Assembly (NCBI GenBank): GCA_965261595.1
Contig: CBDHDG010000006.1
Span: forward strand, 896,001 to 960,000
DNA: 64,000 bases
Direction: 5' to 3'
Source: a bacterium
GTDB taxonomy: Bacteria; UBA8248; JACPRG01; G963555815
Shown here: positions 51,931-53,852 of the stretch, piece after piece
How the letters are laid out: each line of letters opens with the position of its first letter
Position numbering within the stretch: position 1 is the stretch's first letter
Made by a program: the position numbers and the translations under genes
Notes under the pieces: generated by a model
Seen by the model: the letters and a program-made list of their open reading frames with translations, nothing else
Databases searched by the model: none
Told to the model about the DNA's origin: nothing

Positions 51931-52487
51931 TCCATGCGAAGCCCTTTGAGAGTCCTCCCGCCGGCGATGTGGCTCCTCCTCCTGGCGCCGGGCTGGCCAA
52001 CGGCCGCCCGGGCGGATGTCACCCTCCACCAGCGCGTCACCTTCCGGTTTCTCGATGCCCGACCCCGTCCGCCCCTGAAAGTGATCTTCTACGCCAAAGG
52101 GCGGCGCGCCCGGTACGAGGTCGACGGCCGGCGGAAAAAACCAACCATCGTTCGTTTCGACAAGGGGCTGATTCTGCGTCTCGATCCGAATCGGAAGACC
52201 TACGCGAAGATCTCGATCAAGGATTTGGAAGAGGTCCTGAAGGGCGTGAGGAACATCGTCAAGGGCGTGGACGAATTCCTGGCCGGCGGAAAATCGGCCC
52301 GCCGAAAAAAGGCCTACCGCCTCGTGCCGACCGCGGAGACAGACAAGGTGCACGGGCTGGACGCGAGGGTTCACCTTCTGCGGCAGGGAAAAAAGCGTGA
52401 TTATGCCTTTGACGCAGTAAGACACAAGATATAGGTGCGATTTTGAGACACTACATGTTGTGGTTATCCAACAGGAGGGGGTCACTT

Positions 52488-52703
52488 TTAGGGACCCGTG
52501 GAACCACATATCCTCCCATTGATGATGGCTGGTGGCCCGACGTAAGAGCCCCGAATTTCGAGTGGGATGCGTTTCTTCGGCGGTTTCTTATTCCTTATCC
52601 CCATCAAGTAGAAACCCGCATAGAATAGAAGATCAATAACCCTAGAGGCTGCTTCGGAGATGAACCATTCAAAAACGTCAAATCCTTCGCATTTTGCTTC
52701 CAT
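52488..52703 (-). CDS. passenger ORF 2, 71 aa, hydrophobic segment followed by basic tail
   Basis: Strong AAGGAGG RBS upstream of ATG. Confidence 0.5.
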   Translation of the reverse strand: MEAKCEGFDVFEWFISEAASRVIDLLFYAGFYLMGIRNKKPPKKRIPLEIRGSYVGPPAIINGRICGSTGP

Positions 52704-52742
52704 TGCCCCAGTCCTCCTTCAAGGTTGGGTGGTGATGGAACC

Positions 52743-52774
52743 GCAGCGCCAGGGGCGGGATCCCCTGGCGCTGC
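52743..52774. terminator. perfect 13-bp hairpin between the passenger ORFs
   Basis: GCAGCGCCAGGGG-cgggat-CCCCTGGCGCTGC; no clear U-tract. Confidence 0.45.
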
Positions 52775-52796
52775 ACTTGTAAATCTTATTTTCCAC

Positions 52797-53147
52797 TTAT
52801 TTGCACGAGATGAACTCGCACAACGTCTCAAAAACCTTGAATTCCCCTTCAAAACGGAAAGTCGTAGAGCCAGGGATGCTCTTCAGGTATTGGAATCCTT
52901 TTGGATGCTCACTCACCATGAAAATACGCCATTTCTCCTTTGCGTTTCGGTATCCAAGTTTATACAAAGCTACCAAATCGCGATCGTCCAACATGCGAAG
53001 TATGAGTTTTCTTCGTTCCAAATCCACATAAGCGGGGCTGTACACCGCACCTTTTCCGATAAAACAGGCCTTGTTGGATTCTCCAGCCATGACGGCGGAA
53101 GATGCGATGAGGGCAGTTGTAAGTATGCAACCGCCGATAGTACGCAT
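52797..53147 (-). CDS. passenger ORF 1, 116 aa secreted hypothetical protein
   Basis: MRTIGGCILTTALIASSAVMA signal peptide; GGGGG RBS-like run. Confidence 0.65.
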   Translation of the reverse strand: MRTIGGCILTTALIASSAVMAGESNKACFIGKGAVYSPAYVDLERRKLILRMLDDRDLVALYKLGYRNAKEKWRIFMVSEHPKGFQYLKSIPGSTTFRFEGEFKVFETLCEFISCK

Positions 53148-53852
53148 GGGCAGACCCCCAGAAAATCGAGGTTGACACGGGCTTGGGGATTTGCTACAAG
53201 GAGGGTCTGTGAGGTCCTCTCTTGTAGCAACGCCCCGGGGTTCCCTCGGGGCTTCCACCCTTTGAAGTTCCATATACCACATGTAGTGGGTCGGATTCAA
53301 TTTTCGAGGGACCACCATATCTTGTGTCTTACTGCGTCAAGGGCATAATCACGGAAAAAAGGACAAGGTCCGGGCGAAGATCTGGATCACACCGGAGTCG
53401 GACGCGGGCAAAGAGATATACATCCTCCAGCGGGAGATCGCGAGGATCTCCGCCAACCTGCTGGCCCCCATAGACCCAATGCTCTTCGACGAGCTGGAGC
53501 GCATCGGCGGAACGGCCGTGCGGATCCTTCTGCTCGGAAAGATGGGGCCTTCGGGCCGGTGCGGACGGACTGGGTGGTTGAGAAGATCGATCGTCGGGAG
53601 CTGGACAAATCCCTCTTTGAAGTTCCCGAGGGCTACCGGGAGGAAAAAGACCCGGACGAGCCTAAGGCCGGGGGGCGAAGAAGGAAACCCTCCGCCGTCG
53701 AACGGCAATTAAAAACCCTGAAAAAGCTCTTCCGGTAGAGGACCCCGCGCTTCGGCCGGGCCTTGGAAATTGATGACGCGCAAAGGGGGAGGGATTGAGC
53801 GGGGGCTCAGTATCAGCCGACGAGGCTGGATTCGCCCTCGGTGAGGGACCGG

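Follow-up and report, generated by a model that had tools for sequence, protein, structure and literature searches.

What kind of element is the 958-bp segment that interrupts a bacterial gene in the 64,000-nucleotide stretch of DNA analysed here (the window, G000:C6:896001-960000, from a genome of 6.17 Mb in 7 contigs), and how could it have moved without a transposase gene? We conclude with considerable confidence that it is a non-autonomous, passenger-carrying derivative of the IS1595 family of insertion sequences (ISs), that is, a mobile insertion cassette (MIC), a reading already offered by the first-pass annotation of the window and supported here by end homology, 8-bp duplications and the lack of a transposase. 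The element occupies positions 52396-53353 and is closed by inverted arms of 37 nt each, the left on the plus strand (52396..52432) and the right, located by arm pairing and end alignment, on the minus strand (53317..53353). The arms are 97% complementary, with a T/C at position 13 as the sole mismatch, and their sequence occurs at only these two places in the window; none of 100 shuffles gave any match. Exact 8-bp copies of GAAAAAAG border both ends as target-site duplications (52388..52395 and 53354..53361), and the GC content is 0.46-0.53 within the element as against 0.56-0.68 in the flanks. On length, arms, mismatch, duplication and base composition the earlier description was thus accurate. 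Both ends start CGTGATT, which fits CcTGATT, the terminal consensus of the IS1595 subgroup in ISfinder.

The interrupted host gene lies on the plus strand, its codon 154 closing at 52395 and its frame picking up again at 53362, which leaves a 5' part of 154 codons (51934..52395) and a 3' part (53362..53738) that is in frame at 53362 and later shifted by a missing G. Its uninterrupted ortholog in a sister species is an intact protein of 279 aa with a weak match to DUF4412 and reads ...LLRQGKKDKVRAKIW... directly over the insertion site. The empty site itself was recovered from 14-kb contigs of two runs, X6 and X7, belonging to two other studies: both connect 52386 to 53353 and skip exactly 966 nt, equal to the element and one duplication copy, retaining a single GAAAAAAG, and their flanks are otherwise free of base substitutions. 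A contig of a further study, X4, spans the occupied site with no difference from the window, the element has a depth about 10 times that of its flanks in the probable source run, and none of the 40 relatives searched holds it. Given the element's own duplications, the empty sites, the intact ortholog and the absence from these relatives, the window insertion is recent, as had been proposed. That the segment is instead an old fixed feature of the locus, or an artefact of assembly, is already refuted and has a vanishingly small probability, since the site is empty in two other studies and occupied in an independent contig of another, and the ten copies in the genome have differing flanks. No support was found for an artefact, though the assembly has possible homopolymer errors: in the G run after 53543 (53543-53547) the X6 and X7 contigs carry one G more than the window, and with that extra G the host gene stays in the frame of the sister-species ortholog. 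The missing G may reflect a true frameshift in a gene that was broken already, or else an assembly error in the homopolymer.

The other copies had been predicted to differ in cargo and duplications, and they do. Form A (958 bp) is present in six copies that differ only at element position 231, which is T in the window copy and G in the other five; form B (958 bp, one copy) has a different middle; and form C (1315 bp) is present in three identical copies. The left 293 nt and the right ~195 nt are common to all three forms. Form C combines the right part of A with the left part of B, the two meeting at a shared AAATGC, so that it is a recombinant of the two 958-bp forms that afterwards transposed. 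Perfect 8-bp duplications, each one distinct, flank all complete copies with intact flanks (9/9), and their mean GC is near 31% compared with 63% for the genome. At C6:873312 a form C copy interrupts a 1404-bp IS, an intact copy of which reads through the site. Partial copies comprise a fragment of the right end (221 bp), a remnant of the left end (58 bp) and a solo left end of 57 bp. One form A copy, at C6:1438540 (G000:C6:1438454-1439497), has rearranged flanks and no target duplication, and a 57-bp duplicate of its own left end sits 29 bp upstream; it may represent an aborted or nested insertion.

No transposase gene was found in any copy. None of the 54 PF12762 matches in the genome falls within one, no ORF (open reading frame) of the element has a Pfam match, and a profile comparison (hhalign) of the long plus-strand ORF with the local IS1595 transposases gave a probability of 0.1%, in keeping with the initial observation that no DDE-transposase-like ORF is present. 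For this reason we regard the cassette as a derivative of the IS1595 family and not as an IS. Three IS types in the genome share its end architecture: ISa, of 1815 bp and in 3 copies; ISb, of 2101 bp; and ISc, of 1751 bp, with a further, interrupted copy. All three are flanked by an 8-bp duplication, code for a 295-296-aa transposase in an apparently intact gene, and carry a passenger gene that points inward from the far end, making these elements transporter ISs of the IS1595 family. PF12762 and PF12760 are present in all three transposases; the ISc enzyme reaches 200 bits on NF033547, where the cut-off is 75, and 127 bits on PF12762. The IS1595 family has been described as having an 8-bp duplication and a transposase with Zn_ribbon_IS1595 and DDE_Tnp_IS1595 domains (PMC8101967).

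All 12 compared ends, including those of two sister cassettes described below, align without gaps, and the left arm of the window copy aligns in this way with the ends of ISa, ISb and ISc. Over 37 nt, the ends of ISc match the right end of the cassette at 30 and 28 positions, the first 18 nt being identical; ISa has 29 and 24 matches, ISb 28 and 25, the sister element that carries a methylase gene 32 and 30, and the 908-bp sister 26 and 24. The expectation of an autonomous IS1595 element with the same ends was therefore borne out in part: three ISs with homologous ends exist, and none is identical throughout. One end of ISa, ISb and ISc holds a built-in promoter, TTGACA-17-TATATT; the cassette retains TTGACG at left-arm positions 14-19, the place of the -35 box. 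Inward of the left arm lies a subterminal repeat, CACTACATGT (52449..52461, plus strand), with an inverted partner at 53276-53288. The related ends bear comparable CCACAACATGTAG-type motifs, and the repeat is possibly a second transposase-binding site.

We also scanned a genome collection with the 18-nt end motif, which returned 84 stretches, 80 of which were examined. Over the 27 positions outside the motif these loci have an identity of at most 15, compared with 19-23 for 11 of the 12 ends in this genome and 13 for the twelfth. Chance appears to account for 79 of the 80, and only one is a true IS1595 end. At that locus, in a metagenome-assembled genome of another phylum (L037:1597-2695, Bryobacterales contig JANXQZ010000337.1), the motif stands directly upstream of a split IS1595 transposase gene. 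The element there is an IS1595-family IS with a frameshifted transposase gene, and its end has the 18-nt motif GATTATGTACTTGACGCAG in common with the cassette, together with a TTGACG-17-TATAGT promoter.

The cassette is coded on its minus strand. Two small ORFs had been noted at the outset; both are real and lie on this strand (52797-53147 and 52488-52703), each preceded, like a third found in the other forms, by a ribosome-binding site. The first, gene Y (52797..53147), encodes 116 aa with a ~95-aa domain, conserved Cys28 and Cys115, and a hydrophobic N-terminus that is probably an export signal. In form B it is replaced by a paralog, X (118 aa, 36% identical to Y), and in form C the gene order is Y, X without its N-terminus, and S; like Y, X would be exported. 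Gene S (52488..52703) closes the operon in all three forms. Its 71-aa product has a single hydrophobic segment and a basic tail, and the Shine-Dalgarno sequence of the gene, AAGGAGGA, is at 52712-52719, 8 nt ahead of the ATG. Between the two genes is an intercistronic hairpin with a perfect 13-bp stem (52743..52774), and the X module has a hairpin at the same place with a different sequence.

Upstream of Y is a structured 5' leader (53148..53269, minus strand) with two hairpins and a stem in which the ribosome-binding site of Y, GGGGG, is paired with CCCCA. The folding energy of the ~120-nt leader is -53.8 kcal/mol (z -3.58). A fragment from a genome of another genus (G006, genus g4) conserves about 90 nt of the leader, with one compensatory pair in each of two stems, the first hairpin among them. 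Before the leader lies a candidate promoter, TTGAAT, 18 nt, TATATG (53271..53300, minus strand), which aligns with TTGACC-18-TAGGTT in the same fragment. An Rfam scan of 52000-53800 returned three sub-threshold hairpin matches only. A 20-nt leader motif was also found at five metagenome and two viral loci, all unrelated beyond the 20-mer; several of these look like a sigma-54-type promoter with a ribosome-binding site after it.

Several results weigh against the reading of the segment as a MIC, and they concern its ends, its plus strand and its cargo. As regards the ends, none of the ISs with a transposase gene in this genome matches the ends of the cassette throughout; the best match is 30/37, and the helper could have been lost. 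At the position of TATATT in the related ISs the cassette has a poor -10 box, a consensus scan reported neither a promoter nor a terminator in the element, and the methylase-carrying sister element has no target duplication. As regards the plus strand, a long antisense ORF, to which the first-pass annotation made no reference, runs codon-on-codon with the minus-strand genes (52443..53348); it starts 48 nt in from the left end and closes at a stop codon within the right arm. Its length is 297 aa in the two 958-bp forms and 416 aa in form C. It is open in five of the six A copies, in B and in C, and is broken in the window copy by TAG at 52626-52628. This frame is more open than expected by chance: it lacks TTA, CTA and TCA codons (P about 4e-4) and stays open across 345 non-coding nt (P about 0.006).

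Because this depletion of stops exceeds chance, we keep dual-strand coding as a rival, one that we consider highly improbable. The element would then be autonomous and of a new type sharing IS1595 ends, the plus-strand ORF encoding a novel transposition protein whose conserved N- and C-terminal parts serve transposition or its control, with the small genes overlapping on the other strand. The ORF does span the element as transposase genes do, and it is also open in the only relative outside the genome, P0008, a case selected in that it was found through its protein. Gene callers chose it as well: the public gene calls (window 52455-53348 and copies; P0005, P0006) give the 297-aa and 416-aa plus-strand ORFs and the 71-aa S gene in the window copy, and Y and X are absent from the record. 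The ORF has, however, no family match in addition to its negligible likeness to IS1595 transposases, and its middle third is swapped in form B and doubled in form C, which an enzyme would hardly tolerate. Comparison of X with Y gives 41/113 identical residues and a BLOSUM sum of 198 in the minus frame, as against 24/113 and 60 in the plus frame, and first codon positions are 60% purine in the minus frame. The sole polymorphism among the A copies is synonymous in S and creates the plus-frame stop of the window copy. The ISc transposase gene itself has a comparable in-phase antisense ORF of 306 aa, so such shadows are normal in this element family, and in the G006 fragment the plus frame is not continuous between leader and cargo. 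On these grounds the plus-strand ORF is most likely a shadow ORF, and the strand chosen in the public gene calls is probably the wrong one.

As regards the cargo, which had been described as assignable to no family, the searches bear this out. A profile of X and Y had no match in 1.84 billion representative proteins; in a 5.8-billion-protein set the 173-aa reading had none and S found only itself; and no Pfam, NCBIfam, PADLOC or PHROG family was found for Y, X or S. The AlphaFold model of Y, with X as its sole alignment partner, is unreliable (predicted local distance difference test, pLDDT, 43.5), and the best ESM Atlas score for Y, 0.85, is below a meaningful level. With no relatives and an unreliable model, the case for Y, X and S as functional genes is one of internal evidence. 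The RNA runs X18-X20 contain just 7-8% of the sequence words. An alternative that we regard as distinctly unlikely is that the element is mobile and has no working genes, being a large remnant of a passenger-carrying IS, similar to a miniature inverted-repeat transposable element (MITE), whose ORFs are decaying leftovers. The lack of relatives in any library, the poor structure prediction, the lack of a consensus promoter and the loss of the hydrophobic N-terminus by X in form C would all fit such decay. It accords poorly, however, with the retention by X and Y, at 36% identity, of frame, both cysteines and ribosome-binding sites, and with a hydrophobic N-terminus kept by both proteins in forms A and B. 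Substitutions between X and Y favour the minus frame, the hairpins that follow them keep their structure despite differing sequence, and the leader is conserved in another genus with compensatory changes.

If the MIC does carry working genes, their role can be guessed from its sister elements, the identifiable cargos of which are defence-type genes. From this we would tentatively suggest an envelope-associated accessory or defence-type module, an assignment that we hold to be rather unlikely as it stands. Among the sister cassettes, the one with the closest ends encodes a fusion of an N6/N4 methylase with an Mrr-type nuclease domain, a further instance of the different cargo that had been anticipated. 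The passenger of ISb (G000:C6:703409-705509; L137:1305-2051, minus strand) matches PADLOC PDC-S42 (E 1e-40) and NCBIfam LAPAL_fam (E 7e-39) and is a candidate defence gene carried inside an IS. ISa, ISb and ISc also share a conserved, charged ORF of ~52 aa that separates the transposase gene from the end with the promoter (L136:1539-1694, plus; L137:60-212, minus; L138:46-213, minus; 46-52% identity). It lies on the strand opposite to the transposase gene, points outward and may be a regulator. Gene S gives a gappy 28% alignment with this small transposase-adjacent ORF.

Outside this genome, traces of the cassette are few. A 362-bp fragment occurs twice in one genome of the same family (G006; L031:1364-1725 and L032) and comprises a related end, the leader and a 37-aa zinc-ribbon ORF with four cysteines. 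Its other end was not found by self-comparison within the 3.1-kb locus, and from our reading of the DNA the repeat seems to abut another IS. P0008, a protein of 227 aa encoded on a 44-kb ENA contig, corresponds to a fourth cargo variant read in the plus frame, and a related end is also present in runs X6 and X7. A search for P0008 in the class and phylum was negative in all 50 other genomes, and a scan of JGI metagenomes with the plus-ORF alignment gave 199 pattern matches, none of which was confirmed.

Within the genome, the 908-bp sister cassette is present in 11 copies (G000:C4:174445-175352, L139, and 10 further places) and has inverted ends of ~80 bp, a TTGACT-17-TACAAT promoter of its own and an ORF for a 160-aa membrane protein that matches no family. 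Its 8-bp duplications are AT-rich, and some are exchanged between copies, which suggests inversions. The methylase-carrying sister (G000:C5:447433-450663, L140) is split by a copy of the 1404-bp IS mentioned above. This IS has IS3-type overlapping ORFs and 178 near-full-length copies of at least 98.9% identity, amounting to ~4.3% of the genome (e.g. C4:434045-435448). The genome measures 6.17 Mb compared with 3.7 Mb in the other species of the genus, and together with the 178 copies this looks like ongoing IS expansion.

Taken together, these features suggest a mechanism in which the cassette has kept only what a transposase recognises, namely its 37-bp ends and short subterminal repeats, and is mobilised in trans. 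A DDE transposase from a related IS elsewhere in the genome would bind these ends, and insertion at AT-rich sites by an 8-bp staggered cut would produce the 8-bp duplication; in the window, a recent event of this kind would have split the DUF4412-like gene. We put at about even chances that the likeliest helper is the 295-aa enzyme of the single intact 1751-bp ISc (C7:637984-639734), with the ISa and ISb enzymes as alternatives. Once inserted, the minus-strand operon would be read from a weak promoter through a folded leader that hides the first ribosome-binding site, to yield one or two small, predicted exported paralogs (Y, X), each followed by a hairpin, and the constant 71-aa membrane protein S. 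This layout mirrors that of the helper ISs minus the transposase gene, with a small ORF by one end and a passenger read inward from the other. More broadly, IS1595-type cassettes and ISs could act as a shuttle for small defence-type genes, in which a fixed platform of promoter, leader and S receives cargo swapped by recombination; this generalisation is speculative and, in our estimate, unlikely.

The whole group is visible in one IS-laden genome: the 958/1315-bp cassette, its 908-bp sister, the methylase-nuclease cassette and three passenger-carrying ISs, along with empty sites and a datable recombinant. It shows IS1595-type ends spreading small accessory genes without a linked transposase, and if the orphan, predicted exported proteins are functional, for example in the envelope or against phage, they would constitute a family without known relatives.

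MICs are, to our knowledge, rarely documented and almost never annotated. Literature searches on IS1595-type MICs and on defence genes as passengers yielded no more than general definitions. De Palmenaer et al. (2004) reportedly described MIC231, mobile insertion cassettes derived from IS231 of the IS4 family in Bacillus cereus, and Siguier, Gagnevin and Chandler (2009) are said to have described the 'transporter ISs' of the IS1595 family with their passenger genes. Like MITEs, the cassette is non-autonomous and multi-copy, has IS-type ends and duplications, and outnumbers its putative helper. MITEs are usually short (under about 500 bp) and non-coding, whereas the cassette measures 958-1315 bp and has two or three ORFs with ribosome-binding sites, and we rejected assignment to that class. 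By published definitions of MICs and transporter ISs (PMC3129680, PMC3281130), the cassette is of the MIC type: it has inverted ends and a duplication of the IS kind but lacks a transposase, its coding sequences have no relation to transposition, and there is evidence that it has moved. The ends of the related ISs in the same genome are only 24-30/37 identical to its own, and a cognate IS able to act in trans may be among them. MIC231 likewise combines inverted IS ends, no transposase, passenger coding sequences and a modular make-up, and is thought to be mobilised in trans by a cognate IS of the same genome, as we infer for this cassette (PMC3129680, PMC3281130). It differs in belonging to the IS4 family and in carrying identifiable cargo genes, whereas the cassette has IS1595-type ends, an 8-bp duplication and a cargo of orphan, small, predicted exported proteins. 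With the IS1595 transporter ISs (PMC3129680, PMC8101967) the cassette shares the architecture of its ends, a duplication of 8 bp and an inward-reading passenger at one end; unlike them, it is wholly without a transposase gene and has reached a copy number of 10, compared with 1 to 3 for each putative helper.

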